58,445 nucleotides of DNA from an uncultured Clostridia bacterium (GTDB lineage: Bacteria; Bacillota; Clostridia; Christensenellales; UBA1242). Made by a program: the position numbers and the translations under genes. Positions within the stretch are counted from its first letter, which is position 1, and each line of letters begins with the position of its first letter. The stretch covers positions 1 through 58,445 of the forward strand of contig CALVOB010000018.1 of assembly GCA_944350095.1 (NCBI GenBank). The letters are read 5' to 3'. Positions 3,901 through 53,367 of the stretch are shown here, one piece after another. The notes under the pieces are model-generated. The model searched no databases. It was not told where the DNA came from and saw only the letters and a program-made list of their open reading frames with translations.

Positions 3901-3984
3901 GCACGGAAATGCCGAGCCGTAGTCTCGGCTGAAAACCGCAAAAGCGGTTTTCTAAATTTTGCAAAGCAAAATTTGTTTCCGTGC
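3901..3984 (-). repeat. Four-way-junction palindromic element (subfamily II copy)
   Basis: Outer stem GCACGGAAA/TTTCCGTGC encloses GCCGAG/CTCGGC, AAAACCGC/GCGGTTTT and AAATTTTGC/GCAAAATTT hairpins. It begins 14 nt after the stop of the 1883-aa gene. Confidence 0.7.
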
Positions 3985-11807: not shown

Positions 11808-13682
11808 TTAAAAATTAGAAGAATTAGCAGTCCATAACAAACTTTTTGGAAAAGGATATCCATTATTTATTAAAGAATTTGACACCCAATATGATGTACT
11901 TAGCCCACTGCCTACCAAACTTTTTATTTCATAATTAGTTTTTGTTGTGTATTTTACAGTGTTATTAAAACTTGTTGTATATAAGTCAGCTGTACGATAA
12001 CCTGTTTCTTCTTGTGAGCCAGTATCATACATATCTACAATAGGAGGATAAGGACTATTCTTATATTCCACATAATAATATCTAAATCTTATAGTAAAAT
12101 TTGTTGTATCTCCAGATTTAGAAATTATTACATGGGTTTGTAAAGCATCATCAACAGGTCCAAAATGTCCTGAATCATCAAATGTAAAAGTATTGTTGCT
12201 ACTAGAGTAATTTTCTAATGAACTCCAAGTATTACCATAAAAAAATTCAGGTGTATAATAAGCATCTTTCCATTGTTTTATATCACTGTAGCACGAAAAA
12301 TTTCCGCTAACATTATAATCGTAACTACCTCTTCCATAACAATTGGAATTAGATAAATTTGTATTCCCATTTATCGGTGAATAATAATATTTGTTAACAT
12401 ATGAAAAATAAATTTTTGATGCTTCAAATTGCCCAAACCAATTAGATAAAGAAGGAGACAACGGCTCATCGTAATAAAAATAAACATATGTAAATGTACA
12501 GCTTTTGGTTTGTTTTCCACCAGTAATTGAACCTATATTATAACATTGAGTTGGAGATATAGTAGTATAGCCACTAATTCCTCCCGCATAAGCAGAGATA
12601 GTATAGGTATAAATGATATTTGCATCTGAAACTTTCCAGTTTTTTTCTAAAGCATAATAGTATTTAGATACATATTGAAATGCAAGTTTTGCATTACTAT
12701 CACTTATATCTTTAGTTTCTTTTTTTTGCTTACTATAAGAATAGATGTTTCCAGAATTTCCACAATAACTTATAGTCCCAGAATAGCCAGTTATCCCACC
12801 TGCATAAGATGTTGAAGTAGAACTTGAAGATCCTGCTGTAATTGCACCTTTATTATAACATTCTGTAATTGTTGTTCCTCGCCCTGCTATTCCACCCGCA
12901 TATAAAATTTGATTATTATCAAAATTAGATTGTTTACAAATTATGCTTCCATTATTGTATGATTTTGTTATTGTTCCTAAAGATGCATATCCTATAATTC
13001 CGCCTGCATATCCATAACCTGTTGTTCCTGTTAAAGTAGTATAAACATTTGCAGTGTTTTTACATTCACTTATTTTACCGCTACTTCCATACATATAGCC
13101 AACAATGCCACCCGCATATTTTGAAGATGAAATGGATGCAGAAATATTAACACAATTTGAAATAGTAGAATTATAACAATAACCAGCAATTGCACCTGCA
13201 TATTCCGCATACAAACTTCCGCCCGCTATTGTTACATTATCTATATTTGCATTGTAAATAAATCCAAACAATCCTCCATAAGTTGATGAAGTAACATTGC
13301 AATATAAACCTGTAATTCTATATGCATTTCCATTAAAATTACCATCAAATGAATAGCCATTTCCTATTGGAACCCACGAGTAACTAGATAAATCGATATC
13401 TGCACCTAATTCAAAATACTTTTCACTATAAGATGTACCATTATTTACATTATAAGCCAAACTTGCAAGTTGTTCAGCTGAGGAAATAACATAAGGATTT
13501 GTAGAACTACCCGTTCCACTATCATACGCAAGTTCAGTTATATAGTTTGCTACTAAATAATCAGACCAAGACATTGTCCTTTCATTTTTTGGCAAGAAAA
13601 AACTTACACAAATTGCTAAAAGCAAAACAATAATACAAACTAGTAAATATATTGTATTAAAATTTGCTTTTGATGATTTCAT
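11808..13682 (-). CDS. GLUG-motif surface protein (624 aa), N-terminal TM anchor
   Basis: Repeated GGLFG / AGGI(A/V)GY..I..C.N motifs (GLUG motif). C-terminal LINNGYPFPK..W. Confidence 0.75.
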   Translation of the reverse strand: MKSSKANFNTIYLLVCIIVLLLAICVSFFLPKNERTMSWSDYLVANYITELAYDSGTGSSTNPYVISSAEQLASLAYNVNNGTSYSEKYFELGADIDLSSYSWVPIGNGYSFDGNFNGNAYRITGLYCNVTSSTYGGLFGFIYNANIDNVTIAGGSLYAEYAGAIAGYCYNSTISNCVNISASISSSKYAGGIVGYMYGSSGKISECKNTANVYTTLTGTTGYGYAGGIIGYASLGTITKSYNNGSIICKQSNFDNNQILYAGGIAGRGTTITECYNKGAITAGSSSSTSTSYAGGITGYSGTISYCGNSGNIYSYSKQKKETKDISDSNAKLAFQYVSKYYYALEKNWKVSDANIIYTYTISAYAGGISGYTTISPTQCYNIGSITGGKQTKSCTFTYVYFYYDEPLSPSLSNWFGQFEASKIYFSYVNKYYYSPINGNTNLSNSNCYGRGSYDYNVSGNFSCYSDIKQWKDAYYTPEFFYGNTWSSLENYSSSNNTFTFDDSGHFGPVDDALQTHVIISKSGDTTNFTIRFRYYYVEYKNSPYPPIVDMYDTGSQEETGYRTADLYTTSFNNTVKYTTKTNYEIKSLVGSGLSTSYWVSNSLINNGYPFPKSLLWTANSSNF

Positions 13683-21520: not shown

Positions 21521-23074
21521 TTATTCTTCATTATTTTGCCAAAACATGTTTTTAATATAAGGATAGCCATCATTTATTAAGTCTGAACTTGCATAACTAG
21601 AGCCTAACTTACTTGATACAATATCTTTATCGGTGCATTCATTTAACTTAATCGATGAAGGTTTTTTAACATAACTTGAAGTATCTGCATCACTTCCATC
21701 TTCACCTGGTATAGCTTTATATGAACACTCAAACAATAAATGGCAATCTGAATAATTCTTTATAAATTTAACACTATAAGTATAACTAATAAAACTAACA
21801 ACTCCCAAAATTTCAACATCAAATAATTTCGTTCTGTTTTTCACAAAATAATATTCATTTTGTGTTTCAACAGGTAAACTTTGTTTATATACAGACCCAT
21901 TTGAATAACAATTATACCATGTTCCACTTGGTCCAGTAATACCACCAGATAAATTTGCAGATTGCAAAGTTATGTTAAAATTTAAATTATCAAATATATA
22001 ATATCCTGTACTTTCACCTATAGGCAACAATTTTAATCCAAAAAGTTGAAAGTTTACATTATATGTCGTTTGTGTATATCCACCTTTAACCGCTCCCGTA
22101 TTATAACAATTGTAAACAATTCCATATTGTCCGCAAATCCCTCCAGCTATAGCCATAATTGAACGAATTTGTAAAGGATATCTTCTTTCTTGAATATAAG
22201 CCATACCACAAGTAAAAGAATTTGAAATTATTTTTCCATCTTGATAAATGTATAAATTATTATTAGCAGTTACATTGCCCCTATTATATGAATTCCTTAC
22301 TTGTGCCGAAAGTCCTTTACCAACTATTCCTCCTGCGACAGAAAATTGTTCTCTATCTCTACCTTGTGCTGTAATATTACCTAAATTATAACATTCATTA
22401 AGATTTAATGAATTTGACTCTCCTACTATGCCACCAGCAATTGCATTTGCTGAAGTACAACTAATATTCGCATAATTAAAACAGTTTGTAATTGTAATAA
22501 AACTTTGTGAAAATCCTAAAATTCCACCTGTTGAATTTCCTCTTGATATTATATCAACCCCAACATTGCCACAGTTTAATATTTTACAATTATATCCAGC
22601 TTGTCCAACTATGCCACCAGTATAATACTGATTGTTTTGAGTAATTTTCCCACTTAAAATGAATAAATTTTCTATAGTTGCATAATTACAAGAGGCAAAT
22701 AACCCAAGACTTTTTGTTGTAGAAGAACTAGTTATATTTAAATTAGAAATTGATTTTCCGCCACCATTAAAATTTCCTTGAAACGTATTATTTGTACCAA
22801 TAGGTATAAAATTAGAGGTTAAATTGATATTATTTTCGAGTTCAAAATATTTGTTTCTCGTTGTTCCCCCAGAATTTACATATTCTGAAAAATTAATTAA
22901 ATCATCTTCATCATAAATTTTATAAGGGTTATCCTCTACCCCCTCACCAGAAAGTTCTAAGTTTATAACAGCATTCGCATTATTATTGAAAAAAGAGAAT
23001 GATATTGATAATATAAAAATAATAAAAATTGATATAAATATGTATTTTACTGTAAAGTTTTTATTTTTTATCAC
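21521..23074 (-). CDS. GLUG-motif surface protein (517 aa), N-terminal TM anchor
   Basis: LGLFA, TGGIVGQ, TGGILGF and AGGIVGE repeats. C-terminal LINDGYPYIK..W. GTG start 6 nt after GGAGG. Confidence 0.75.
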   Translation of the reverse strand: MIKNKNFTVKYIFISIFIIFILSISFSFFNNNANAVINLELSGEGVEDNPYKIYDEDDLINFSEYVNSGGTTRNKYFELENNINLTSNFIPIGTNNTFQGNFNGGGKSISNLNITSSSTTKSLGLFASCNYATIENLFILSGKITQNNQYYTGGIVGQAGYNCKILNCGNVGVDIISRGNSTGGILGFSQSFITITNCFNYANISCTSANAIAGGIVGESNSLNLNECYNLGNITAQGRDREQFSVAGGIVGKGLSAQVRNSYNRGNVTANNNLYIYQDGKIISNSFTCGMAYIQERRYPLQIRSIMAIAGGICGQYGIVYNCYNTGAVKGGYTQTTYNVNFQLFGLKLLPIGESTGYYIFDNLNFNITLQSANLSGGITGPSGTWYNCYSNGSVYKQSLPVETQNEYYFVKNRTKLFDVEILGVVSFISYTYSVKFIKNYSDCHLLFECSYKAIPGEDGSDADTSSYVKKPSSIKLNECTDKDIVSSKLGSSYASSDLINDGYPYIKNMFWQNNEE

Positions 23075-25405: not shown

Positions 25406-25710
25406 TATTTTATCTCAACAATTTTTATAGCTGTGAAAGGTTGACGGTGACCTTGTTTTTTTCTTTCATTCTTTTTAGCTTTGTATTTAAAAACAACAAC
25501 CTTATCGCCCTTTCCGTGCTCTACAACTTCAGCAACAACGCTTACTTTTTCTACATAAGGTGCACCAGCTGTAATTTTTTCGCCGTCTACAACAAGTAGT
25601 GGTTTAAATGTAATTTTATCCCCTACTGCTCTTTCAAGTTTTTCAACTTGAATTGTATCGCCAGCGCTAACTTTATACTGTTTTCCACCTGTTTCAATAA
25701 TAGCGTACAT
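25405..25710 (-). CDS. rplU: 50S ribosomal protein L21
   Basis: MYAIIETGGKQYKV. Start set at 25710 after AGGAGG; the longer track ORF is an upstream extension. Confidence 0.95.
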   Translation of the reverse strand: MYAIIETGGKQYKVSAGDTIQVEKLERAVGDKITFKPLLVVDGEKITAGAPYVEKVSVVAEVVEHGKGDKVVVFKYKAKKNERKKQGHRQPFTAIKIVEIK

Positions 25711-25796
25711 GGTATTCCTCCTTCCTAAAAAACTCGCTGTTAAGGTAGCCAAAAGCTTTATAACCTTTTCCATGCGGATAACATATGAATAGTATC

Positions 25797-25825
25797 AAAA
25801 AAAATGCTTGATGTCAAGCATTTTT
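25797..25825 (-). terminator. Rho-independent terminator whose stem also carries the rplU -35 box
   Basis: ATGCTTG-acat-CAAGCAT followed by U8 on the minus strand. TTGACA (25812-25817) -17 nt- TACTAT (25789-25794). Confidence 0.7.
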
Positions 25826-25905
25826 AAGTTTTATTTTTGTATAGAAGCAAATATTGCAAAACATAATAATTTAATCTATATTTTACAGTATTTCCATAGA
25901 GAGTA

Positions 25906-25978
25906 GCATTGCCTTTTGCCTGCAAAAGATAACTTGCATAAGCAAGTTGTAATTTTGACAAGGTCAAAATTGCAATGC
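25906..25978 (-). repeat. Four-way-junction palindromic element (subfamily I copy)
   Basis: Outer GCATTGC/GCAATGC encloses CTTTTGC/GCAAAAG, (AT)AACTTGC/GCAAGTT(gt) and AATTTTGAC/GTCAAAATT with no linker nt. It ends 2 nt from the stop of the lipoprotein gene. Confidence 0.7.
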
Positions 25979-25980
25979 GT

Positions 25981-26487
25981 TTATGCCGTTGGAGCTTGCT
26001 CTAAGGTTGCACTACTATCTACACTTAATGTGTAAGTTACCTCGGCTGATGTAGAATTCCATTTAATTTTAACTTGCACATTATTCTCTTTGCTTACACT
26101 AGTAATCCAAACAAGTGAGCCATCTTCTTCAAAAGCAGTTTCATCATATTCATTCCAACCGCTTTCATCTTGTCTATTTGTAGTTTTAACATAGGCATCT
26201 TCACCACCTACTGTTAAGCCAGATGGTGGAGTAAATCTTATAGCAACAATATTTCCAGCTTCAATTCCAAGCACGGTTTCACTATAAGGTATTGTACCTT
26301 TCAAAACAAGATTATAACCGTTTTGAGTTAGTGAATATTCTGCCTCTTCTGTGATTGGCGTAAAAGTTTGATTAGAACTATTGTATGTTCCAAGTGTAAC
26401 TTTTTCTGCCGGATTTCCACAAGCAATTAAGCTGGTTACTGCAAGACCAACAACTAAAGCTAGTGAAAAACTTTTTAAAATTCTCAT
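25981..26487 (-). CDS. Lipoprotein (168 aa), function unknown
   Basis: Signal peptide with lipobox LIAC-G. Start at the second ATG, 6 nt after AAAGGAG. Confidence 0.7.
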   Translation of the reverse strand: MRILKSFSLALVVGLAVTSLIACGNPAEKVTLGTYNSSNQTFTPITEEAEYSLTQNGYNLVLKGTIPYSETVLGIEAGNIVAIRFTPPSGLTVGGEDAYVKTTNRQDESGWNEYDETAFEEDGSLVWITSVSKENNVQVKIKWNSTSAEVTYTLSVDSSATLEQAPTA

Positions 26488-28887: not shown

Positions 28888-28933
28888 ATATTTTTCTCTC
28901 ATTAAACCAACCATTTAATTATATTAATATAAC

Positions 28934-29911
28934 ATGAGATTGTCAAACAAATTTAGCATAAATAAAAAGCTTATTTTAATTATGATAGTTTGCATTTTAT
29001 TGGGGGCTATTATAATTAACCCTGCAATTTATATTACTTCATGTTTAAATGGAATAATTGTTTGGGCTACCGTTGTTCTTCCCGCTCTTCTTCCCTTTAT
29101 GTTCTTTACCAAAACTTTAACAGAACTTGGAGTTGCAGAAATTTTAGCAACAAAATTTAAGCTATTTCCTAAAATTTTTAAAGTTCCTTCCGTGGCAGTT
29201 TATGTGTTTGTTTTAAGCATACTTTCAGGATATCCTGTTGGTGCAAAAATAGTTGCCGATTTATATGAAAGTGGAAATATAACAAAAGAAGAAGCTTATA
29301 AAATTACTACTTTTACTTCAAACTCTGGTCCTATGTTTATTTTAGGAAGTGTGGGCATTGGAATGTTTGCTAATAAAAAACTTGGAATTATAATTTTAAT
29401 TTCTCATATTTTAGGAGCTTTAATTAATGGACTGATTTACAGAAATCATAAAGAAAAAAAATTAGAAAAAAATAAAAAAATAATTGTTAAAAATAATTTA
29501 AGTTTAGGCGAACTAATGTGGAATACAGTAAATTCCGTGCTTATTATTGGTGGTTTTATAGCACTATTTTTTGTAATTATAGAAATATTAAATAATTTGC
29601 ATATTTTTTCACCAATTTCAAACCTATTTTCCTCCATTTTTAATTGTAATTCTAATATATTTAACGCTATTTTTAACGGAATTTTTGAAATTACAAGAGG
29701 TTGCCTTGACATTTCTAAACTTGGCTTAAACGAATTTTTTTCAGGCTTATTATGTACTTTTATTATTAGTTTTGGCGGACTTGCTACCGCTATGCAAGCT
29801 TTTGTATTTTTAAAAAAATTTGATATGAGATTTTCTTTCTTTATAAAACAAAAAATAACGCATGCAATTTTTGCAAGCATTATTTCAATAATTATATTAT
29901 TTATTTTTTAA
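28934..29911 (+). CDS. YlbJ-like nucleoside-recognition (Gate) domain membrane protein
   Basis: Multi-TM protein whose N-terminal region resembles sporulation integral membrane protein YlbJ. The call is tentative. Confidence 0.5.
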   Translation: MRLSNKFSINKKLILIMIVCILLGAIIINPAIYITSCLNGIIVWATVVLPALLPFMFFTKTLTELGVAEILATKFKLFPKIFKVPSVAVYVFVLSILSGYPVGAKIVADLYESGNITKEEAYKITTFTSNSGPMFILGSVGIGMFANKKLGIIILISHILGALINGLIYRNHKEKKLEKNKKIIVKNNLSLGELMWNTVNSVLIIGGFIALFFVIIEILNNLHIFSPISNLFSSIFNCNSNIFNAIFNGIFEITRGCLDISKLGLNEFFSGLLCTFIISFGGLATAMQAFVFLKKFDMRFSFFIKQKITHAIFASIISIIILFIF

Positions 29912-31404: not shown

Positions 31405-31529
31405 ATTCTACATTTAGTAGTTTTTATTATTTAACCAAATAAAAAAATATTATAATTTCTACAATTTTAAGAAAAACAAAAATATTCTTATTTATAATTT
31501 TCCATAAAAAAGAGGCTTAAAAAACCCCT

Positions 31530-32231
31530 TTAATTATCTAAATAAATATATCTTCTACAATTTTCACATTCAAGAATTCCATTTTTCTTTAACTTTTCTA
31601 TTTGTGCCACTGAAAGCTCCATCATACAGCCACCACATGATGAACCCCTAAGAGGAACAAATATTGGAAAAAATTTATCCGTTCTTTTTGCTTTATATCT
31701 ACTTAATAATTCTTTATCTATTCCCTTTTCTAAGCTTGCAAGTTCTTGTTGAAGTTTATGAATTTCGGGCTCTTTCTTCTGCCTTTCAACTTCATATTTT
31801 TGTTTATGTTCGGCATGTTTTGCTTTTGCTACACCATATCTTTTTTTGGTGTTGTCAAACTCATCTAAAATCTTTTTTACTGTATCAGCTTGCGACATGA
31901 TTTTCTTTTCAAGATAATTTAAGTTGGAAACTATTTTATTTGTCAATTCTTTTAAGTCTTGAATTCCTTTTTCGTCAAGAGCATCTAAATCTTTTCTTTC
32001 CAAAGTGTCTAAAAGTTTTTGATTGTCTTCAAAAGCTTTTTTTAAATTATTGTAATCTCTTACTACATCTTCTGCATTTTTATCTAAACTAGCTGAACGA
32101 GCCTGTGCATCTTTTGCCACATTTTGCATATTTTGATAAATCTTTCTATCTTCACTAGTTTCTAATTCACGCTCTAAATTTATAACTTTTTTATCTTTTT
32201 CTTGATATTCTAAAATCTTTTTTATATCCAT
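31530..32231 (-). CDS. Coiled-coil protein with C-terminal C4 zinc ribbon (COG1579 / zf-RING_7 type)
   Basis: Long coiled coil followed by CGGC..(x)..CENC. Confidence 0.6.
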   Translation of the reverse strand: MDIKKILEYQEKDKKVINLERELETSEDRKIYQNMQNVAKDAQARSASLDKNAEDVVRDYNNLKKAFEDNQKLLDTLERKDLDALDEKGIQDLKELTNKIVSNLNYLEKKIMSQADTVKKILDEFDNTKKRYGVAKAKHAEHKQKYEVERQKKEPEIHKLQQELASLEKGIDKELLSRYKAKRTDKFFPIFVPLRGSSCGGCMMELSVAQIEKLKKNGILECENCRRYIYLDN

Positions 32232-35471: not shown

Positions 35472-38381
35472 TTATTTCCAAGCAGAACCATTCCACACAT
35501 AAGTTGTAGAACCATTAGTAAGTTTAATTTTATTTGTCATTGAACTTCCAATAACACTTGAAGTAAGTTTGGTTTTAGCAGTTCTAATTTGTCCGCTTGC
35601 AACTGTTATAACAGTTGGAGTTTTTGTTGAAGCATCGGTGCAAAAGGATTCAATACCTAAGGTTAAATTATTCCAGTCTACAACATTTGTCATGTCTATA
35701 TTAATTAATCCACTGCAACCATAAAAGGCATAAACATCTATTCTTATTACTCCTTCTGGAATATTTATACTACTTAAATTTCTACAATGATAAAAGGCTC
35801 TATTACCTATACTTTTTACTCCTTCTGGCAAACTTATGCTACTTAAATTAGAACAATAAGAAAAGGCATACTCACCTATACTTGTTAACTGGCTGTTTTC
35901 ACCAAAAGTCACGCTACTTAAATTACTGCACTTATAAAAGGCATACTCACCTATACTTGTTACACTACTTGGCAAAATTATGTTAGTTAAACTACTGCAA
36001 GAAGAAAATGCACTAGAACCTATGCTTATTCCACTGTTTGGCAAAGTTACGCTAGTTAAATTACTGCAAGAAGAAAATGCACTAGAACCTATACTTGTTA
36101 CACTATTTGGCAAACTAACGCTAGTTAAAGCATAGCATTTATAAAAAGCATACTCATTTATTTCAGTAGTTCCAGCTTTTATGTTTACTTCTTTAATACT
36201 TGACCTATCTATTGGTGATAATGCTATATATGTTCCATCATCATTTTTATAGTACTGCATTCCATATTCTTTTATTATTTTTGTTTGTTCATCTGTAGTA
36301 TGTATTACTTTTTCATAACTAAAATAACTTGAAACATTTAAACCTGTATAGTTATATACTTCTGCTAGGGCATAGCAATAATTAAAGGCAGAAGAACCTA
36401 TCTCTTTTACACTGCTTGGCAAAGTTAGGCTAGTTAAAGCGTAGCATTCATAAAAGGCATATTTGTTTATCTTAGTTGTACTATCTTTAAAGGTTATTTC
36501 ATTTATTGTATTTCTATTGCCATATGTACCTATTGCTATTATATCTGTGCCATCATCATAATACTGCACATTGCCATTTCCTGATATTTTAGATGCTGGC
36601 TTTTCATCTCCTACTTTTAAGTTATGTATTTTTAATGCATATTGCCCTAAATCTCCAACACTAGAAGAACCATCTAAAGTTAAACTTGAATAGTTATATA
36701 TTTCTACTAGTGCATAGCAACTATCAAAGGCAAGAGTTCCTATACTTGATACAGTACTTGGAATTGTTATGCTACTTAAACTAGTGCAACTAGAAAAAGC
36801 AGAAGAACCTATCTCTGTTACTCCTTCTGGTATATTTATGCTACTTAAACTACTGCAATCCCTAAAGGCAGAAGAACCTATCTCTGTTACTCCTTCTGGT
36901 ATGTTTATGCTACTTAAACTACTGCATTGATAAAAGGCCTTATAACCTATACTTGTTAACTGGCTATTCGAACCAAAACTCACGCTACTTAAACCACTGC
37001 AACCATTAAAGGCACCATTACCTATACTTTTTACTCCATCTAGAATTGTTATGCTACTTAAACTACTACAATTATAAAAGGTATAATTACCTATACTTTT
37101 TACTCCATCTGGAATTGTTATGCTACTTAATAAACTACTGCAATTATAAAAGGCATGCTCACCTATACTTGTTACTCCATCTGGAATATTTATGCTACTT
37201 AAACTACTACAATTATAAAAGGCATAATCACCTATACTTGTTGCTCCATCTGGAATTGTTATGCTACTTAAACTACTACAATTATAAAAGGTATAATCAC
37301 CTATACTTGTTACTCCTTTTGGAATATTTATGCTACTTAAACTATTGCAATTATAAAAGGCAGAACCACCTATGCTTTTTACACTTTCTGCTATATTAAT
37401 TGAGGTCAAATCTTTGCAACTATAAAAAGCATAGCTATCTATCGTAATTATTCCATTTTGAATTATAATATTGCTAGAAGGTGCCAAATCTGTAAATCCG
37501 CTATTAGGTATTGAAGGTTTTTCTGGAAGTCGTATAATATTATGATTATTTATCACACCGACAAAATTTGAATTACTATCCATTGTTTTTATTGCTGTTA
37601 TAGGAGTTCCATCAAAATACATGCTCGGCACAACCAATGTTTCAGGTTTTTCTTCTAAATTTTTATATGTATCTGATAATCCCGTTACTGCTGTATGGTC
37701 AGAACTGTAAGTAAAATAATCATAATTTATCGTAGGAGGAACAAATACCTCAAAATTTACATCTATCGTTAAACTTTTGTTTGTAAATGATGATGAAAAG
37801 TTTGTTAACTTCATTGTTATTGTATATGTTCCTGTTTGGGCTGTTTCACCATTATAGCCACCTATTGTTAAAGATGAAGATGTTTCTTCTATGTTTACCT
37901 TTCCTTGAACATCTGTATCTTGTAAAAAGGTGTCTTTATTTGTGGTTATTGTTGCTTGGATATCTTTCTCTGAATAGTTTGTAAATGTTAAACTATATCT
38001 TATTATGTTTTCTTCTTCACTAAACTCTACATTCCCTATTGTCCATGCTGTCATAGTACCATTTGATGATGTTCCTACTGGCGCATCATTATAATCTGTT
38101 GTTTGAGTGTCAGTTTCCTGTTCTTCATCTACTGCGTCATAAGAATATCCTATGTAGTAATAGTCTGAACCCTCTGGTTCTTCTGCTCTTGTAGGTTCTG
38201 TGGTATCATTACCCTTTAAAACTTCACCTTTTACTTTTACATAAACTCCGCTAGCCTCAAAGCTTACACTACTTGTTACATTTAAACCTACTTGGCTTGC
38301 TGATAGTACGCCTACTATCATCATACATAGGCTTGCACAAAATGCTGTTAGTGTACCTATTAACTTTGCTCTCTTCTTCAT
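35472..38381 (-). CDS. BspA-type leucine-rich-repeat surface protein (969 aa) with N-terminal TM anchor
   Basis: Dozens of about 23-aa units, SIG..AF..CSSLSSI.IP.GV. The N-terminal 215 aa are paralogous to the 300-aa protein at 47120-48022. Confidence 0.85.
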   Translation of the reverse strand: MKKRAKLIGTLTAFCASLCMMIVGVLSASQVGLNVTSSVSFEASGVYVKVKGEVLKGNDTTEPTRAEEPEGSDYYYIGYSYDAVDEEQETDTQTTDYNDAPVGTSSNGTMTAWTIGNVEFSEEENIIRYSLTFTNYSEKDIQATITTNKDTFLQDTDVQGKVNIEETSSSLTIGGYNGETAQTGTYTITMKLTNFSSSFTNKSLTIDVNFEVFVPPTINYDYFTYSSDHTAVTGLSDTYKNLEEKPETLVVPSMYFDGTPITAIKTMDSNSNFVGVINNHNIIRLPEKPSIPNSGFTDLAPSSNIIIQNGIITIDSYAFYSCKDLTSINIAESVKSIGGSAFYNCNSLSSINIPKGVTSIGDYTFYNCSSLSSITIPDGATSIGDYAFYNCSSLSSINIPDGVTSIGEHAFYNCSSLLSSITIPDGVKSIGNYTFYNCSSLSSITILDGVKSIGNGAFNGCSGLSSVSFGSNSQLTSIGYKAFYQCSSLSSINIPEGVTEIGSSAFRDCSSLSSINIPEGVTEIGSSAFSSCTSLSSITIPSTVSSIGTLAFDSCYALVEIYNYSSLTLDGSSSVGDLGQYALKIHNLKVGDEKPASKISGNGNVQYYDDGTDIIAIGTYGNRNTINEITFKDSTTKINKYAFYECYALTSLTLPSSVKEIGSSAFNYCYALAEVYNYTGLNVSSYFSYEKVIHTTDEQTKIIKEYGMQYYKNDDGTYIALSPIDRSSIKEVNIKAGTTEINEYAFYKCYALTSVSLPNSVTSIGSSAFSSCSNLTSVTLPNSGISIGSSAFSSCSSLTNIILPSSVTSIGEYAFYKCSNLSSVTFGENSQLTSIGEYAFSYCSNLSSISLPEGVKSIGNRAFYHCRNLSSINIPEGVIRIDVYAFYGCSGLINIDMTNVVDWNNLTLGIESFCTDASTKTPTVITVASGQIRTAKTKLTSSVIGSSMTNKIKLTNGSTTYVWNGSAWK
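36714..37448 (-). repeat. Tandem 69-bp (one 72-bp) near-identical coding repeats
   Basis: The period is visible directly in the DNA and in the antisense ORF 37046-37399. It corresponds to LRR units at about aa 312-556. Confidence 0.85.
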
Positions 38382-38897: not shown

Positions 38898-39185
38898 TTA
38901 ATCTTTTTTATCTTCAATTTCTACTATATTTTCTTTGTCTTTTTCTTCTGAATTTTTTTGGTTAATTTCTGTTTCTTCTGTGTTTTCTTCTGTTTCTTTT
39001 TTATTTGGCATTGTAACTATTCCAAATACAACTAAAACTCCGCAAACAGACATTATTATATCAGATATTAACTCTTCTTGTACTTCTACTCCAAAGCACT
39101 TTGTTATAGACTGCACAAGTATTACTACCGCACCAGAAAGTGCCGTCCAAAATCCATACGATTTTATTCTATCTTTAAATTTCAT
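38898..39185 (-). CDS. Holin (phi LC3 / Phage_holin_1-like)
   Basis: KDRIKSYGFWTALSGAVVILVQ..FG..VVFGIVTMP pattern, two TM helices, charged C-tail. Confidence 0.6.
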   Translation of the reverse strand: MKFKDRIKSYGFWTALSGAVVILVQSITKCFGVEVQEELISDIIMSVCGVLVVFGIVTMPNKKETEENTEETEINQKNSEEKDKENIVEIEDKKD

Positions 39186-39411
39186 TTAATTTTTTTCCTT
39201 TTTTCTTGGGCATTATTATAACTTTTTTTATTTCACAAATATCTTCTTTTATATCTTCAACGATATCTAAATGATGTGAAAGTTTTTTAATTGCGTCTTG
39301 ATATTTTTCTTCCCGCTTTTTACTATCCTTAATTTGAATAAATAAAAGTGATACAAAAAGTATGGCAAAAATACCATTACTTATAATAATATTAATAATA
39401 TCTTGCCACAT
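39175..39411 (-). CDS. BhlA/UviB-family holin-like protein
   Basis: Single N-terminal TM (GIFAILFVSLLFIQIK), then DSKKREEKY and a helical tail, as in BhlA/UviB. Confidence 0.5.
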   Translation of the reverse strand: MWQDIINIIISNGIFAILFVSLLFIQIKDSKKREEKYQDAIKKLSHHLDIVEDIKEDICEIKKVIIMPKKKGKKLNEI

Positions 39412-39413
39412 AA

Positions 39414-40283
39414 CTATCTATTTTTTAGAGCTTGCAAAAGTGTAGCGTAATAATTGCCAAGTTCAATTTTATATTGGTCGTTATTAGTAAGTTCAGCCAA
39501 AGCTTCATCTTTATCTAATGTATAGAAATATGAAAGAGCTAAGTTGTACTTTTCCCCTTCTTTAACTCTATTTAGAGCTGTTGAACCATATTTACCAATA
39601 AAATCTGCTAATTCTTGATTTTGCTTTTGCTGATTTAATTTATACTCAGCTTCTGTTTCCGCTATCTTGTTGTTATACTCTAATACTTCCTTTTCTTTTT
39701 CTTCAATTTCTTTATTAATCTCTTCTATTTTTTCATTAAGTTTGGTAGCGTAAGAAATATCAAAGGAATTTAATGCATTTTGTTTTTGACTTTCTAAAAG
39801 CGATTTTTCTTCTTCTAATTCTTGAAATTTTTGATTATATTCTTGATCTAATTTAGAATATTCTTCAAGCATACCTTGGTCAAAAGCATCTAAAATATTT
39901 ACAACAATTGAAGACCTAGCAAGGCCTCTACTAGTTGCATCCATAGACGCATCTTGTTTTAATTCAGAATATGTGTTTTTTAAACTTTCCTTTTGTGTAT
40001 CTAAATTTTGTTTATTAGTAGATTGAAGATTGTTTATACTATCCACTTTTGTTGAATATTCTTCCAATATATCGTTTTTACCTTGGTCTAAATAGCTTTG
40101 CAAACTAGACTTAGCACTTTCTTCCACTTCTTCCTTAGTTGGAGCTGTGTATTCCATTCTATCAAGGGTTAAATCGGAATTATCAAAAGAATATTTTTTA
40201 TCAATGTTTTTAAACTCATCAAAAAGATTAGCTTGCTTATTTATTTTTTCTGACTGTTCGTCTGTAAATTTGTATGTATACAT
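39414..40283 (-). CDS. Coiled-coil phage-module protein (289 aa)
   Basis: Start at 40283 after AAAGGAG. Heptad-rich E/K/Q sequence. Function unknown. Confidence 0.5.
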   Translation of the reverse strand: MYTYKFTDEQSEKINKQANLFDEFKNIDKKYSFDNSDLTLDRMEYTAPTKEEVEESAKSSLQSYLDQGKNDILEEYSTKVDSINNLQSTNKQNLDTQKESLKNTYSELKQDASMDATSRGLARSSIVVNILDAFDQGMLEEYSKLDQEYNQKFQELEEEKSLLESQKQNALNSFDISYATKLNEKIEEINKEIEEKEKEVLEYNNKIAETEAEYKLNQQKQNQELADFIGKYGSTALNRVKEGEKYNLALSYFYTLDKDEALAELTNNDQYKIELGNYYATLLQALKNR

Positions 40284-40382
40284 TTTTTCTCCTTTTGCAT
40301 TTCTCTTAAATTTAAAATTTCTGGACATTTTTCATAAAAATTTTTTCTTTTAAACCTTTGTATTTTATAATAAATTTCTAAA

Positions 40383-41888
40383 TCATCCATAAACTGAAAG
40401 CACCACTTCTGGACAAGAAATTTCCGCATTTCCATTTTCCGTGATAAAGCTTAATTGAATATACTCTCCACGAACATTTGTTCTCACTCTTTGCGTTCCA
40501 TCTTTTCCTAAAATTTCATATTCTTTTTCTTCAATATCAGATTTTACAACTATTTTACAATCATACTTACTTTTTATAAAAACTTCTTTTATACGCTTTT
40601 GCTTACCAGCATAACCTAAATTAGAATTAGGAGAAAGCCACACACTTTTTAAAACTTCCCCAAACACTGTTCCATCATGAGTTAACTCACCCATTTTATT
40701 GGCATAAGTTCCATTAAAACAAGCAACAAGTTTAGATACTTCTCCTTCTTCAAGGCTAATCATTTTATTTATATCAACACCACGCATAATGTTTATATCA
40801 CCAGACTTTAAGTCATATTCAATAAGAGCATTGTTTATAAATTCACCCGTTTCACAACCAATTTTTTCATCGTCTGGAAAATTGAGTTTACAAGCTAAAT
40901 AATATTTGCCGTTATGAAAAACGCTAGACGCATTTTCATTCTCAACACCCTCAAACATACTCTCTATTCCAAGGTCAAGTTTTGTTGTTGTATAGCCACT
41001 AAAATAATGAACACCGTCTTTGGCTAAAAACATTATTCTATCTCCGCACGAACAAACTGTTCCACCATATATTTTAACGCTTGATATGAATAATTGACTT
41101 ACACTAAAATCTTCAAGCGAGCCATAAGCCGAAACTCTGGCAACACCATAATCACGAAATACATATACATAATCATTAAAAGATAACACTGCACACATAC
41201 TTCCGCGCTCATCTACCATTTGAATAAAGCCAGCTTCATCTAATTCATAATTCCATGCTGTAGGGTCTAAATTTGCGCTAAAAACAAGAGTGTTTCTTTC
41301 GCCCTCTAAAATGGCAAATAATCTTTCATAATGAATACAAACTGATACAAGTTTTGGTGCATCATCATAGGTTTTTGCTAAATAATTTTGTGTAAACACA
41401 AGCATTGAATCGGTTGGAGATGAAAAAATCATACAATCTTCACCATTAAGTCTATAATTTATAGCAACAGGAACGCTTGTAAACAATGGAATGTCTGGAA
41501 CTTTAAAAGAATTAGAAACATAATGTAAAACATCAAAATAACAAAGGTCACCATCTTGTGTGGTGTACATAATTTTATGTTTTCTCTTTTCAGTTAAATT
41601 GTCGTAATACCTAAAATGCCAAAGATTTGTTATGTTTTTATTTTCATAAATTTCTATAACTCTATTTTCACCAAACTCATCGGGTATAGTGTTTGGAAGC
41701 GTAAGTTCTTTAAAGCCAAGCCCTGTTTTTAATGCGCCGTTTTTAACTTGATAATTGTATACAAGTTTGCCTTGTTTGTGTGGAAGAAGATTATCATCTA
41801 TTTCTGTGTTCATACCAGAAGCAAAACTAGAATAAGTAATTTTATAATTTTTTGTGGACTTTGTTTTAACCTTATTTGAATAAAACAC
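40383..41888 (-). CDS. Phage-module structural protein (about 501 aa), beta-rich; tail/nozzle/receptor-binding candidate
   Basis: Position after the connector-like gene. Preferred start is the GTG at 41888, 8 nt after AGGAGG and overlapping the upstream TAG; the track start at 41897 abuts the RBS. Confidence 0.5.
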   Translation of the reverse strand: MFYSNKVKTKSTKNYKITYSSFASGMNTEIDDNLLPHKQGKLVYNYQVKNGALKTGLGFKELTLPNTIPDEFGENRVIEIYENKNITNLWHFRYYDNLTEKRKHKIMYTTQDGDLCYFDVLHYVSNSFKVPDIPLFTSVPVAINYRLNGEDCMIFSSPTDSMLVFTQNYLAKTYDDAPKLVSVCIHYERLFAILEGERNTLVFSANLDPTAWNYELDEAGFIQMVDERGSMCAVLSFNDYVYVFRDYGVARVSAYGSLEDFSVSQLFISSVKIYGGTVCSCGDRIMFLAKDGVHYFSGYTTTKLDLGIESMFEGVENENASSVFHNGKYYLACKLNFPDDEKIGCETGEFINNALIEYDLKSGDINIMRGVDINKMISLEEGEVSKLVACFNGTYANKMGELTHDGTVFGEVLKSVWLSPNSNLGYAGKQKRIKEVFIKSKYDCKIVVKSDIEEKEYEILGKDGTQRVRTNVRGEYIQLSFITENGNAEISCPEVVLSVYG

Positions 41889-42451
41889 TAAATCCACCTC
41901 CTAGATGGTAATCTTATTTCGCTTTTTTTAGAATAGGCTTCTTTTAGTCCACTATAAAATCTTGTTTCCCATACTTCTGCATCATCATAAAGCCCTGTAA
42001 TTAAACAAAATTCCATTGCTATGCCATAAGCAAGAACTCTATCTTGAATTTTACCGCCAAACATGAAAACTTCGTCTTCAAATGATAACTCTTCTGGAGC
42101 GTAGCTATATGTTAATTGTGCACAAAGAACATTTGCATGAATTCCATCTTCTTCAAGAGAATATGGTATATTTTTTCCATTGGCATAGAGTTTTCTAATT
42201 TCTGTTATGGTTTTTGACAATTTGTTATAAGCAAGCACCCCATCTATGAAAACAACTTGTTCAGTTTTTATAAGTGGAATATAAGCAGTAGCTATTTCAT
42301 TATAAACAAGGTTAAAACATTTTTTTAAATGTTCTATTTCTGTATTTTCAAGAGTTGGAATTGTGGTTTGCTCACCAAATGGAGAATATATAAGCAAATC
42401 CTCCCTGTTTAAAAACATTAACGCAAGTTTTAATATTTCCTTAACTTTCAT
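41888..42451 (-). CDS. Head-tail connector/adaptor-like protein (187 aa)
   Basis: Called from position and size, plus an N-terminal MKVKEILKLALMFLNREDLL pattern reminiscent of gp6-like connectors. Weak. Confidence 0.35.
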   Translation of the reverse strand: MKVKEILKLALMFLNREDLLIYSPFGEQTTIPTLENTEIEHLKKCFNLVYNEIATAYIPLIKTEQVVFIDGVLAYNKLSKTITEIRKLYANGKNIPYSLEEDGIHANVLCAQLTYSYAPEELSFEDEVFMFGGKIQDRVLAYGIAMEFCLITGLYDDAEVWETRFYSGLKEAYSKKSEIRLPSRRWI

Positions 42452-42710
42452 ATACTCCTCTCTTTCTATTTTCTTCGTCTAGTTCTTTTAATAATCTATC
42501 CCGATTTTCAACACGGGTTTGATTAACAAAATCTATTGTACGAGAGTCTAATTCATCAAAAGGAACAGTCAGACAATATGTGTCTGACTGCCCACTGTGA
42601 TGAATTTCATACTTTTTCTTTTTCGTGTTATAGAGGATAAAATATTTGAAATCTATCTCTTTTAGCCTTTGGCTGATGTAATAAACATCATTTTTTATTT
42701 CAATTAGCAT
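42441..42710 (-). CDS. Hypothetical phage-module protein (89 aa)
   Basis: Strong AGGAGGAG RBS and translational coupling to the next gene. Confidence 0.5.
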   Translation of the reverse strand: MLIEIKNDVYYISQRLKEIDFKYFILYNTKKKKYEIHHSGQSDTYCLTVPFDELDSRTIDFVNQTRVENRDRLLKELDEENRKRGVYES

Positions 42711-42731
42711 TTTTCTCCTCCTATTTTTAAG

Positions 42732-42810
42732 GCAAGGAAGTGCCGACTTTAAAAAGTCGGCTGGCGATGAAATCGCCTAAAAATTTTTACAAAAATTTTT
42801 ACTTCCTTGC
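42732..42810 (-). repeat. Four-way-junction palindromic element (subfamily II copy) abutting the capsid stop codon
   Basis: Outer GCAAGGAAGT/ACTTCCTTGC encloses GCCGACTTT/AAAGTCGGC, GGCGAT/ATCGCC and TAAAAATTTTT/AAAAATTTTTA. Confidence 0.7.
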
Positions 42811-44046: not shown

Positions 44047-44055
44047 AATTTTCTC

Positions 44056-46499: not shown

Positions 46500-46509
46500 A
46501 ATTTCTCCT

Positions 46510-46719
46510 TTAAATTTTGCTTAACCTTTTAGGTGAATAAGGTGCATCTAAGCTTCTTGGTATAATACTTCTTCCAAGCTCCTCAAAAAGCTCCTTTTTA
46601 CAATTTTCACAAAAGTGAATTTTAGGGCTAAATCGTTTTCTAGTAAAAAAGCAATATTTAGCCTCATTTTTACAACCCAGCATATCGCAAGTAGCCTTGT
46701 AAGAAATTTCTCTAATCAT
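46510..46719 (-). CDS. Small zinc-ribbon protein (69 aa)
   Basis: C..C(x)..FCENC cysteine pairs. Confidence 0.5.
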   Translation of the reverse strand: MIREISYKATCDMLGCKNEAKYCFFTRKRFSPKIHFCENCKKELFEELGRSIIPRSLDAPYSPKRLSKI

Positions 46720-47002: not shown

Positions 47003-47119
47003 AAAAAACCTTCTTAAATTAAAAAAGTTACCGCCGAAAATTTCCGCGATAACTTTAATTACCTATATTTTATTTTATAAATATAAAAAATTCAATTCCA
47101 CATGACAAAATAAGGTTTA

Positions 47120-51692: not shown

Positions 51693-53120
51693 TTAATAAT
51701 ATTTTTTAGATAATTTTTTAATTAATTTTTCTTTATCTTTTTGAATGTCAGTTTTAAATGTTATTTTTTTAGGAATTTCAGGTCTGCTAATTATATAATA
51801 TCTAAGTTCATCTAAGGCATGGTCATCTTTTTTTACAGGATTATCCCCTTTACCCCAAAAGTATCCTTTTATTTCTCTAATTAAATTTGTGCAAGTTCTA
51901 AAAATAAAAAGTTTTGCCTTGCCCTCACCATCTTTTAAATAGCTTTTTACCCTTGAAATTCCAGCAAATAAATTTTTATCTACCTTAGGATTTGCTAGAA
52001 TTCCATTATCGTAAAAAAGTTCAACTACACTACGCTCAGCCGATAATGTCCTTTGAGTTGCTGCACTGTCTATTAAAGTAGAAATCATTCCATTACTAGC
52101 TCTGTGCCAATTTAATTTGTCTGATATTTCCTTTATTTTTTCTGCATGATAAATTATATCCCTTTTAGCTTCGTAATGCTCAGCAATTACATACACATTT
52201 CCATCATAATCTACAGCATACCAATGTGCAGACAACGGATTATTTAGTCCAGGGTCTATTGAAATATTATCTTGCCATTCATAAGGAATATCAAAAGGGT
52301 CTATTACATGAACATTTTCATCAAATTCACTATAAACTAAACCTCCATTAGCTGTAAATCGGCCATATTTTCTTGCTTCAAGCTCGCTTTCACTTAAAGT
52401 TGATGTTAAAAGTTTAATTTCATCTTTATCTAAAAAAGGATTATCTTCCCAATTCATTTGTTCGCACCAAATTTCAGGATTATTTTTTTCGTTTAAATAA
52501 ATTTCATTATAAACCCAAGTTAATCCTTTTAAAGGTGTCATAGTGCCAAATATATCACCTTTTTTATCAAAAACTCTCATTAAACATTCAAAGTATATAT
52601 CTTCTGGAGGTTCTTCATCAAACCAAACAAAATCTAAACTCGCACCTTGAAATTTATCTCTACCTTGGTCAGCACTTTTAAAATAAATTTTACTATTTAA
52701 TCCAGAAACATTTTTAATTATTATATAGTCTATAATACCACTTTCATATCCTTCTTTTCTCCCCTCAACCATGCAAACATCAACAATCCAATCAGCATTT
52801 AAATAATGCAGAATTTTACTTTGTGCAACTTCTCTTTGAACTTGTCTGGAAACAGAAACAACCCAACCTGTAACACACCTTTTATTTTTTCTGTATGGAT
52901 GAATTCCTCTTGCAAGCCAAATACATTCAACAGCTCCACATTCAGTTTTTCCGCTTCTATTTCCACCAAACACCCAACGATTTCTTTTTGGACATTTATG
53001 AAACAAAAGCTGTTTTTCATGGACAACTTTTCCTGTATTGTATCTATTTAAAGCGTTTTTAGAATATCGTTTTATAATTTCTTTATTTACTTTATCTAAT
53101 TTTTTTAATAACTCTTTCAA
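51693..53120 (-). CDS. terL: Terminase large subunit
   Basis: Walker A GGNRSGKT, Walker B LDFVWFDEE, C-terminal nuclease-like half. TTG start 7 nt after GGAGG. Confidence 0.85.
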   Translation of the reverse strand: MKELLKKLDKVNKEIIKRYSKNALNRYNTGKVVHEKQLLFHKCPKRNRWVFGGNRSGKTECGAVECIWLARGIHPYRKNKRCVTGWVVSVSRQVQREVAQSKILHYLNADWIVDVCMVEGRKEGYESGIIDYIIIKNVSGLNSKIYFKSADQGRDKFQGASLDFVWFDEEPPEDIYFECLMRVFDKKGDIFGTMTPLKGLTWVYNEIYLNEKNNPEIWCEQMNWEDNPFLDKDEIKLLTSTLSESELEARKYGRFTANGGLVYSEFDENVHVIDPFDIPYEWQDNISIDPGLNNPLSAHWYAVDYDGNVYVIAEHYEAKRDIIYHAEKIKEISDKLNWHRASNGMISTLIDSAATQRTLSAERSVVELFYDNGILANPKVDKNLFAGISRVKSYLKDGEGKAKLFIFRTCTNLIREIKGYFWGKGDNPVKKDDHALDELRYYIISRPEIPKKITFKTDIQKDKEKLIKKLSKKYY

Positions 53121-53139
53121 ATTGTGTCCTCCAAATTAG

Positions 53140-53224
53140 AAAGAGGCATTGCAATTTTGACTTCGTCAAAATTATAACTTGCTACTGCAAGTTATCTTTT
53201 GCAAGCAAAAGGCAATGCCTCTTT
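53140..53224. repeat. Four-way-junction palindromic element (subfamily I copy) upstream of terL
   Basis: 13-bp outer stem AAAGAGGCATTGC/GCAATGCCTCTTT encloses AATTTTGAC/GTCAAAATT, ATAACTTGC/GCAAGTTAT and CTTTTGC/GCAAAAG with zero linker nt. Confidence 0.7.
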
Positions 53225-53367
53225 GGTACGGGCGGAAATTTTGCAAAATACAAAAATAAATTTTTTTGCTTTGCTATATTTCTTACCACTTAAAAAAACG
53301 CAAAATTGGTATTTTTTAGACAAAAATATAAATGCCAACTTTGCACTAAAAGAATTAAAATTGTTTT

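Follow-up and report, generated by a model that had tools for sequence, protein, structure and literature searches.

Immediately downstream of a lipoprotein gene, the 58,445-nt stretch of DNA analysed here (the window) carries a branched, self-complementary sequence, and a hairpin terminator of ordinary type follows it separately.

Fold and surroundings of the junction

The element, which we call F1, is a four-way junction in which a 7-bp outer stem surrounds three abutting perfect hairpins at 25906-25978, as the first-pass annotation had read it (Table 1). On the plus strand, the sequence runs GCATTGC, CTTTTGC-ct-GCAAAAG, AT-AACTTGC-ataa-GCAAGTT-GT, AATTTTGAC-aag-GTCAAAATT and GCAATGC. On the minus strand, which is the sense strand of the lipoprotein gene, the outer arm GCATTGC is followed by hairpins H1 (AATTTTGAC-ctt-GTCAAAATT), H2 (A(C/T)AACTTGC-ttat-GCAAGTTAT) and H3 (CTTTTGC-ag-GCAAAAG) and by the closing arm GCAATGC. 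The arms are 7-9 bp long and are joined without linkers, and the loops of H1, H2 and H3 measure 3, 4 and 2 nt, with conserved lengths and variable sequences. The AT...GT extension of H2 in the window consists of an A-T and a G.T pair; in most strains, H2 is a perfect 9-bp stem, ATAACTTGC/GCAAGTTAT. Each hairpin pattern occurs exactly twice in the 58-kb window, against an expectation of 0.00-0.01. With DNA parameters, the four-way junction is the minimum free-energy (MFE) structure of both F1 copies on both strands (z -5.9 to -10.7). With RNA parameters, it is the MFE structure of copy 2 (-41.8 kcal/mol, z -8.9), and in copy 1 a long competing hairpin takes its place (-31.2 kcal/mol, z -4.3).

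The surroundings of copy 1 also agree with the initial description. The TAA stop codon of the lipoprotein gene (minus strand, 25981-25983) lies 2 nt from the junction, and the hairpin with its T8 run lies beyond the junction as seen from that codon. The hairpin overlaps a TTGACA-17-TACTAT promoter-like site of the rplU-prp-rpmA operon (minus strand), and a permissive Rfam scan gave a weak L21_leader match at 25732-25776. The lipoprotein itself matches no Pfam or PHROG family. Copy 1 is present in all nine same-species metagenome contigs that cover the site; the organism occurs in the ERZ24773xxx ('BRZ') and ERZ286xxxxx ('ONAT22') series of samples. A conserved small open reading frame within the F1 unit was considered and rejected, since the 47-aa frame at 25824-25967 is not conserved in copy 2.

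Table 1. Positions of the junction elements and neighbouring features; positions refer to the window unless another contig is named.
Feature	Position	Strand	Remarks
F1 copy 1, 73-nt four-way junction	25906..25978	-	
Copy 1 tail	25842..25905	-	~63 nt, AT-rich; stretch homologous to the copy 2 tail ~25845-25895
Bidirectional hairpin with A/T runs	25797..25825	.	AAAAATGCTTGA..TCAAGCATTTTT; kept in relatives without F1
Lipoprotein gene	25981..26487	-	168 aa (public contig calls); signal peptide and ...LIAC lipobox
F1 copy 2	53140..53224, core 53146-53218	+	outer stem extended to 13 bp, AAAGAGGCATTGC/GCAATGCCTCTTT
Copy 2 tail	53225..53290	+	homologous stretch ~53234-53284
Terminase large subunit gene	51693..53120	-	Pfam Terminase_6N 1.7e-17; phrog_2 3.9e-32
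F2	3901..3984	-	-45.9 kcal/mol, z -8.1
F3	42732..42810	-	-39.0 kcal/mol, z -7.5
F4	L021 3763-3838		-54.2 kcal/mol, z -9.5; after the stop codon of a Zn-ribbon gene

Copies, inserted unit and empty sites

The same stems had been noted at a second place in the window, and this proved to be a real copy (53146-53218 within 53140-53224); however, its hairpins come in reverse order, so that copy 2 is inverted relative to copy 1. A repeat search finds the two 73-nt arms to be 92% complementary. Copy 2 lies between a gene for a sigma/ArpU-like regulator and the terminase gene, in a 5' region and in the opposite orientation to the nearest gene. Beyond its end, a GGAGG follows after 12 nt and the TTG start codon of terminase after 25 nt. 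It is identical in contig L014, and in the L025 strain it shows two differences in 281 nt, both within the H2 loop. The adjacency to terminase looks incidental, because orthologous clusters are without F1. A prophage or invertible segment bounded by the inverted copies was rejected, as dnaG, rpoD, pta and ackA lie in the 27 kb that separate the copies, and the phage-like cluster (38.9-54.7 kb) is syntenic in relatives that have no F1; a terminase pac/cos or late-promoter site was rejected on the same synteny. Flip-flop inversion of the hairpins was likewise discarded, because the loops of the two copies are not reverse complements except for AA/TT in H3.

The similarity of the two copies extends beyond the junction, on its H3 side, into a tail that the first-pass annotation had not noticed. 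The tails share 39 of 52 positions, and their local alignment scores 40 against 16.4+-2.7 in shuffles and exceeds all 1605 AT-rich 80-mers of the window. The copy 2 tail stops at an A7 run (53292-53298) that is also found at the empty site of the relative L015. The F1 unit is a non-coding insertion of about 136-150 nt, composed of the 73-85-nt junction and an AT-rich tail of about 60 nt. It has no coding capacity and no terminal inverted repeats, since GCATTGC... (or AAAGAGGCATTGC...) at one end is not complementary to ...ATATTTGCTTC (or ...TTCTTACCAC) at the other.

A third copy was the only match when a sequence pattern was scanned against 185,579 species-representative genomes. It lies in the metagenome-assembled genome (MAG) of another uncultured Clostridia (L011), behind an unrelated gene of 217 aa and next to cls; that MAG holds one F1 copy in all, and a T7 run follows its outer stem on the strand opposite to sense. 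A covariance model built from the F1 copies found no further member in 245 kb of the species and its relatives. An F1 cassette that travels with a gene was rejected, as the lipoprotein and the 217-aa protein are dissimilar and their genes occur without F1 in relatives.

Relatives also provide the empty counterpart of each site. For copy 1, three contigs (L019, L020 and L021; lipoprotein 86% and 73% identical) show the stop codon, about 20 nt and then the same hairpin with its T8, and no F1; the intergenic region is 270 nt long in the window and 134-135 nt in these relatives. For copy 2, the TerL orthologues in L015 and L017 have no F1 upstream; the upstream region is 247 nt in the window against 97 nt in Candidatus Caccopulliclostridium gallistercoris (TerL 89% identical) and 82 nt in a more distant relative (71%). 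At the third site, the relatives L034 and L036 (neighbouring proteins 92% and 82% identical) have a plain terminator only. The filled-minus-empty difference is 135-136 nt for copy 1 and 150 nt for copy 2, equal to junction plus tail. There are thus three insertions at three unrelated sites. No target duplication of 3 nt or more is seen between filled and empty sites; since the empty sites come from diverged relatives, the boundaries are good to about +-3 nt and a 1-2-nt TA duplication is possible. The far end of the tail abuts an A-run in all three copies, the same A-run stands at the empty sites of copies 1 and 2, and it is the sole feature common to the three flanks, in which no shared target word could be recognised. 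Each insertion is bordered on one side by a stop codon (or ribosome-binding site) and on the other by the A-tract side of a hairpin that was already there.

These comparisons bear directly on how the element had been interpreted. That F1 is an addition to a normal terminator and no replacement of it is supported by the relatives L019, L020 and L021, in which the hairpin and T8 stand without F1, and the terminator downstream of copy 1 is older than F1. On the other hand, a role tied to this lipoprotein mRNA is not borne out, since F1 is an insertion that also occurs inverted upstream of the terminase gene and, in another species, behind an unrelated gene. F1 is a structured, low-copy and dispersed insertion, copied into a minimum of three unrelated intergenic sites across two uncultured gut Clostridia.

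Constraint on the fold and other elements of the same shape

The suggestion that the stems are conserved while the loops drift is upheld by the paralogues, in which 0 of 64 stem positions differ against 5 of 9 loop positions (Fisher p=8e-6); the full stem identity (64/64) uses the strain consensus, the window itself having one T>C at the junction-proximal pair of H2. All junction differences between copies 1 and 2 in the window fall in the three loops and at this one junction-proximal pair. The tails differ at 13 of 52 positions, again against 0 of 64 in the stems (Fisher p=1.2e-5). Within the species, ten strains give a similar picture: 2 of 64 stem columns are variable, both at one junction-proximal pair, against 2 of 9 in the loops and 11 of 64 in the tail (stems versus tail, p=0.016; stems versus tail and loops, p=0.006). 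None of the next 152 nt, which cover the terminator/promoter, the leader and the start of rplU, is variable. H2 carries two single-arm polymorphisms, each of which would give a G.U pair, but on opposite strands, so they do not identify the functional strand.

Comparison with the third copy adds compensatory change. The L011 copy keeps all 37 pairs, with five double changes and no disruptive one. Neither H1 nor H2 has changed. C-G has become T-A both at the outer-stem pair next to the junction and at the pair that closes the H3 loop, and the outer stem is extended by AAATA/TATTT in place of AAAGAG/CTCTTT. In a nine-sequence alignment, 91.8% of the cells are paired, compared with 36-41% when the partners are slid. 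The observed covariation is reached by 2 of 500 shuffles, although it rests on few independent events because F1 is known from three loci in two species. Compensatory change and stems that are more conserved than the unpaired parts, the generic marks of a conserved structured single strand, are thus both found in F1. Selection preserves the junction fold as a single strand and does not preserve the loops and tail. The contrast of 2 of 64 with 11 of 64 within the species indicates that the fold of each copy is individually constrained, and a constraint that acts copy by copy argues for a function at the locus, beyond transposition competence alone. This constraint within the population is the best argument that the fold matters where F1 sits.

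The same shape recurs with unrelated sequences. A combinatorial scan for perfect hairpins, three in direct succession and enclosed by an outer stem, gave two more strong cases in the window (F2 and F3) and one in a sister species (F4), against about 0.2 weak A/T-only matches in shuffled windows. F2 begins 14 nt past the stop codon of a gene for an 1883-aa surface protein; its outer stem GCACGGAAA/TTTCCGTGC encloses hairpins AAATTTTGC, GAAAACCGC and GCCGAG with loops of 3, 4 and 7 nt and 1-nt linkers. F3 abuts the stop codon (42811-42813) of a 411-aa gene in the capsid position, with the outer stem GCAAGGAAGT/ACTTCCTTGC around AAAAATTTTT, GGCGAT and GCCGACTTT (loops of 2, 3 and 2 nt). In F4, a T7 run follows the junction. 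By comparable criteria, the scan gave no five-way junctions and, among three-way junctions, one marginal A/T-only match (28897-28939). A recoding signal was rejected, since no slippery sequence precedes the stop codon of either the lipoprotein gene or the capsid-position gene.

The F3 site is informative about what is kept. In nine strains, the only difference in F3 is a 1-nt loop indel. At the corresponding site of sister species, L017 has a plain hairpin. L015 has a G+C-rich hairpin of 160 nt, with an outer stem that is homologous to the F3 outer stem and shows covariation with it (TAAGGAAG/CTTCCTTA versus GCAAGGAAG/CTTCCTTGC). What is conserved at this site is the presence of some stable structure after the gene.

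Three properties are common to the junction elements. Five of the six independent sites (F1 copy 1, the L011 copy, F2, F3 and F4) start 0-38 nt after a stop codon. Not one G.U pair occurs among the 199 predicted pairs. On the sense strand of the upstream gene, T/U predominates in the hairpin loops (31 T : 11 A, p=0.003, for counts that are not fully independent), and the T-rich loops lie on the minus strand, which is the lagging-strand template by GC skew. One might go further and regard perfect, linker-free four-way junctions of any sequence, with exactly three hairpins and a closing outer stem, as a distinct element class of this Clostridia lineage, recognised by shape by a dedicated protein as a single-strand Holliday-junction mimic, with F1 as a mobile family of the class; such a new structure-guided insertion element or RNA module seems to us rather doubtful.

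Known families and competing explanations

F1 belongs to no known repeat or RNA family among those compared, so that its identification as a known repeat, which the first-pass annotation had named as a possible refutation, did not come about. At the gathering score, Rfam 15 reports tRNA only in the whole window and nothing in L011, L021 or L014, and a permissive scan of 25700-26100 placed only sub-threshold chance matches over F1. A tRNA cloverleaf has a 7-bp acceptor stem, D, anticodon and T arms, 7-nt loops and conserved linkers; F1 is not tRNA-like, and ARAGORN and Rfam give only tRNA-Leu at 872-957. Retron non-coding RNAs have an a1/a2 outer stem that encloses the msr/msd hairpins, next to a reverse-transcriptase gene. 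F1 is similar in shape, but it is 73-85 nt long and no reverse-transcriptase domain is found in the neighbouring reading frames. By blastn, phage and plasmid collections contain no F1 match. IMG/VR gave none for F1 to F4 except one chance match to H1 only in a giant-virus-like contig (L024), and the JGI metagenomes gave two chance matches, both without the structure. In the literature searched, no four-way-junction element of this kind was found, only stem-loop repeat families (in general, PMC2267715), REPs with RAYTs, and unannotated multi-hairpin loci. A compact, strictly Watson-Crick four-way-junction element is not described in Rfam or in this literature.

Partial likenesses are nevertheless evident. 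Two reports describe REPs as single imperfect hairpins of 20-40 nt with a GTAG/CGTC head, in tens to hundreds of copies and with a genomic RAYT gene (PMC3733652, PMC3333891). Like the REP, BIME and REPIN sequences of Proteobacteria, F1 is extragenic, lies mostly just past stop codons and folds as a single strand; it also occurs in either orientation and is present or absent between close relatives, and, as with those sequences, one genome holds several families of the same shape. Unlike REPs, F1 is perfect, has three hairpins and a closing stem and lacks the GTAG tag, with no GTAG/CGTC at either foot of its stems; it occurs twice in 58 kb, no RAYT is present in the window, and no Y1/HUH domain was found among the window reading frames scanned. 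Elements of this group stabilise mRNA 3' ends and owe their mobility to RAYT Y1 transposases; a REP acts as a barrier to 3' exonucleases upstream of, or in place of, terminators. BOX and RUP of pneumococcus, ERIC/IRU, Correia and bcr1 of the Bacillus cereus group are structured MITE-like repeats that are co-transcribed with their neighbours and affect mRNA stability or termination; they have terminal inverted repeats and/or TA or TTTAT duplications, and their ends form one long hairpin. F1 shares with them the intergenic non-coding insertion of 100-150 nt, the stable predicted RNA fold and the patchy distribution, and as in MITEs it occupies three dispersed loci with presence or absence between relatives. 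In contrast, its structure lies at one end, the tail is not palindromic, no duplication of 3 nt or more is detectable and the copies are far fewer.

Regarding DNA sites that act as folded strands, F1 resembles integron attC sites in lying immediately 3' of a reading frame and in conserving structure over sequence. attC sites are recognised as folded single strands of 57-141 nt, the long ones with branched terminal structures, and need RYYYAAC/GTTRRRY core sites, extrahelical bases, an unpaired central spacer and the integron integrase. F1 is without these features: its outer stem GCATTGC/GCAATGC is perfect and has no bulges, no integrase lies beside any copy, and the flanking genes are syntenic housekeeping genes, not cassettes. 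The IS200/IS605-derived PATEs are non-autonomous and defined by DNA hairpins used on one strand; each end has an imperfect subterminal hairpin, and the elements insert 3' of a fixed word of four or five nucleotides. F1 is similarly small, without terminal inverted repeats or detected target duplication, but it has one compound structure at one end only and no conserved hairpin in its tail, and its flanks (boundaries ~+-3 nt) share only the A-run, with no target word recognisable in all of them.

Terminators and 3' 'retroregulator' stem-loops, such as those downstream of the Bacillus thuringiensis cry genes, are also found right after stop codons and are highly stable, and a relative carries an ordinary hairpin at the F3 site. 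F1 differs from them in being branched and in having no sense U-tract, and its canonical hairpin with T8 follows separately. In the sense direction, the outer stem is followed by TACTCTCT in copy 1 and by GGTACGGG in copy 2 (plus strand), and no U-tract follows it at copy 1, copy 2, F2 or F3. An intrinsic terminator would have its U-tract directly behind a G+C-rich hairpin on the transcribed strand; the only matches of a terminator scan are the separate hairpin at 25800-25825 and one inside F1, made by H2 with ATCTTTTG.

We tentatively favour the reading that F1 is a low-copy duplicative element whose working form is a folded single strand and whose most likely role is that of a 3'-UTR barrier before the normal terminator. 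Read-through from the lipoprotein gene would place the junction in the 3' UTR, 2 nt past the stop codon and about 80 nt before the true terminator. As a closed and very stable block, it might then stop 3'-to-5' exonucleases and/or pause RNA polymerase, in a manner that can be likened to REP/BIME, ERIC or 3' retroregulator stem-loops. Since all pairs are Watson-Crick, the fold would work in either orientation of insertion. A role in cis on the transcript is favoured because five of six sites are at stop codons, because some stable structure is conserved at one of them, because each copy is constrained in the population and because the older terminator still stands downstream. The excess of T/U in the loops on the sense strand points to the same kind of role. 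A protected 3' end at F1 would be plausible. If F1 is an orientation-independent 3' barrier of mRNA, it would provide a portable module for stability or insulation, possibly useful in synthetic biology. Small structured intergenic repeats are already known; a strict Watson-Crick four-way junction that recurs with unrelated sequences beside stop codons and is constrained copy by copy has no counterpart in Rfam or in the literature searched. Whatever its role, F1 shows that attention to architecture when sequence is read can reveal low-copy elements that escape repeat finders and libraries of covariance models.

Several observations speak against a transcript barrier. A plain hairpin would suffice as an exonuclease block, and the recurrence of exactly three hairpins with 0-1-nt linkers is left unexplained. 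The absence of G.U among 199 pairs is unusual for selection on RNA only and fits a constraint at the DNA level or on both strands. For copy 1, the four-way junction is the optimum with DNA parameters and not with RNA parameters. The 2-nt loop of H3 is too short for an RNA hairpin to close, although the pair that closes it has covaried in L011. For copy 2, the site is a 5' region and the orientation is opposite to that of the nearest gene, and the covariation comes from three loci in two species.

The shape with three hairpins, the lack of G.U pairs, the 2-nt H3 loop and the optimum with DNA parameters would be better explained by the main rival, a selfish single-stranded DNA element, which on the whole we consider possible but unlikely. 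Here, the junction would fold on the lagging-strand template, be recognised by a structure-specific enzyme acting in trans (a HUH/Y1 transposase of the kind that serves IS200/IS605-derived PATEs and REPINs, or a junction-binding recombinase) and be cut-and-pasted or copied there, with effects on the neighbouring genes being incidental. Three independent insertions with empty sites in relatives fit this explanation, and the lack of a detected target duplication and of terminal inverted repeats recalls transposition of the IS200/IS605 and IS91 types. Strictly Watson-Crick stems, a junction that is the DNA optimum on both strands, a covarying pair that closes a 2-nt loop, and T-rich loops on the lagging-strand template all fit as well, and the sharing of one shape by unrelated sequence families is reminiscent of structure-recognised attC sites and REPs. 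If recognition by shape serves mobilisation, F1 points to an unknown structure-specific enzyme in poorly studied uncultured gut Clostridia. However, the copy number is very low (2 in 58 kb, none more in 245 kb and one in the L011 MAG), the two copies have opposite orientations within one replichore, hairpins occupy one end of the unit only, and no transposase or recombinase gene lies near any copy. Selection for mobility alone also does not predict that stems are constrained at a single locus while the tail drifts.

F1 might have no function, its palindromes being kept by self-correction through intrastrand template switching and its copies arising by microhomology-mediated duplication between terminator regions flanked by A/T runs. 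We consider this improbable, although all stems are perfect and loops vary freely, an A-run adjoins the tail end of every unit and stands at the empty sites of copies 1 and 2 too, and low copy number comes without hallmarks of transposition. Under template switching, a change is either undone or carried over to the opposite arm, so double changes are expected at a nearly neutral rate, but none is found between paralogues whose tails are 25% different, or among the ten strains. The recurrence of three hairpins and an outer stem with unrelated sequences, and an outer stem that covaries with its arms 59 nt apart, would also be left unexplained. Still less probable is a site in duplex DNA, in which the palindromes serve as operators or res-like subsites for a dimeric protein or recombinase, or as a packaging or regulatory site of the phage-like cluster. 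Every F1 arm ends in a TTGC/TTGAC half-site-like motif, the 3-, 4- and 2-nt spacers are conserved in length and vary in sequence, and copy 2 does lie between the regulator and terminase genes. This reading is largely refuted by the covariation and by the absence of F1 from the orthologous phage-like clusters in L015-L018: binding to a duplex leaves no role for the outer repeat, 59 bp apart, with its covarying extension (AAAGAG/CTCTTT versus AAATA/TATTT), F2, F3 and F4 have the shape in common but not a half-site, and copy 1 and the L011 copy lie in housekeeping contexts. Finally, a promoter in the tail could drive an independent small RNA of about 90 nt from tail to junction, antisense to the 3' end of the lipoprotein gene at copy 1 and, at copy 2, supplying the terminase mRNA with its 5' leader; we judge this to be about as improbable as the absence of function. 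A TTGCAA-17-TATATT promoter-like site does occur on the plus strand inside the copy 1 tail (25854-25882), a TATTTT motif is common to all three tails in the alignment, and the outer stem of L011 is followed by T7 in the direction of such an RNA. In contrast, no part varies more among strains than the tail, neither copy 1 nor copy 2 has a T-run behind the junction, and the scan gave no such promoter in the tails of copy 2 and the L011 copy. Promoter-like matches stay near the shuffle expectation at copy 2 (2 versus 1.9) and in L011 (3 versus 2.5); around copy 1, there are five against 1.6 expected from shuffles.

Junctions with the architecture of F1

Three further four-way junctions share the architecture of F1, the main element of outer stem and three abutting hairpins, in sequences unrelated to it (see the table). 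F2, the second perfect junction, has an outer stem of 9 bp enclosing hairpins of 9, 9 and 6 bp with linkers of 1 nt. It begins 14 nt after the stop codon of a gene for a 1883-aa Listeria-Bacteroides-repeat surface protein, and a ZIP transporter gene lies downstream. The start codon of the transporter falls inside a 9-bp hairpin (CATTCATAG...CTATGAATG).

F4, the G+C-rich junction of the sister species, has an outer stem of 10 bp and hairpins of 6, 8 and 8 bp, and is followed by T7. It is located between a Zn-ribbon gene and the ortholog of the lipoprotein gene that adjoins copy 1 of F1. The orthologous Zn-ribbon gene in the window species is followed by a plain terminator (31500-31530).

F3 follows the capsid-position gene (411 aa), abutting its stop codon, and the next ribosome-binding site is 14 nt beyond F3. 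Across nine strains, the sole variation in F3 is a 1-nt loop indel. In contig L015, and also in L016, a long imperfect hairpin of 160 nt occupies the exact position of F3, with an outer stem homologous to that of F3. The hairpin is approximately 60% G+C in a genome of approximately 30% G+C, and it has a folding energy of -74.6 kcal/mol (z -5.7). Between species, a conserved stem appears to have had its interior exchanged.

Features of the window and of related contigs
Feature	Sequence	Positions	Strand
F2, second perfect four-way junction	window	3901-3984	
F3, third four-way junction	window	42732-42810	
Long imperfect hairpin, 160 nt	L015	19246-19405	
Long imperfect hairpin, 160 nt	L016	12534-12693	
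F4, G+C-rich four-way junction	L021	3763-3838	
Compact phage-like gene cluster	window	38898-54716	-
Inverted repeat, arms 10-11 bp (GCAAAATTGG...CCAACTTTGC), spacer 25 nt	window	53292-53344	
ORF with serine-recombinase zinc-ribbon domain (Zn_ribbon_recom, 1.4e-13)	window	115-957 region	
969-aa BspA-type leucine-rich-repeat protein	window	35472-38381	
Large Glug-motif surface proteins, several	window	11808-13682, 21521-23074, 48268-51615	
Two paralogous short-chain dehydrogenase genes, divergent	window	56331-57990	
Tandem arrays of abutting hairpins	L024 (IMGVR_UViG_3300021093_005316)	530-690	

The phage-like cluster and its inverted repeat

The cluster encodes a sigma70-r4/ArpU/Q-like regulator, the terminase large subunit, a 1115-aa surface protein, a P22-type portal, the capsid-position gene product, a DUF7934 protein and a holin. 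Its synteny is kept in many Clostridia MAGs, and the chromosomal neighbourhoods differ. The terminase large subunit has 4989 homologues at E<=1e-20, with identities of 67-89% among the relatives listed. Two possible readings of the cluster are a small, widespread prophage and a particle/GTA-like system that has been domesticated.

The inverted repeat lies between the terminase gene and the 269-aa gene, which diverge from each other, and promoter-like hexamers overlap it. It is preceded by A7, which reads as T7 on the terminase strand, and is conserved in L015 with a covarying mismatch. A possible function of this repeat is regulation of the late operon, as its operator or attenuator.

Other features

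The zinc-ribbon ORF overlaps or abuts tRNA-Leu(CAA) (872-957), and the window seems to open here at the boundary of an integrated element. The BspA-type gene contains internal DNA repeats with a 69-nt period (repeat families D1-D3). The inverted repeat I2 (74 nt, 76%) is explained by the two divergent dehydrogenase paralogues. The hairpin arrays of L024 lie in a giant-virus-like contig with a D5-type helicase as neighbour; one of them carries the AATTTTGAC...GTCAAAATT arm by chance and is unrelated to F1.
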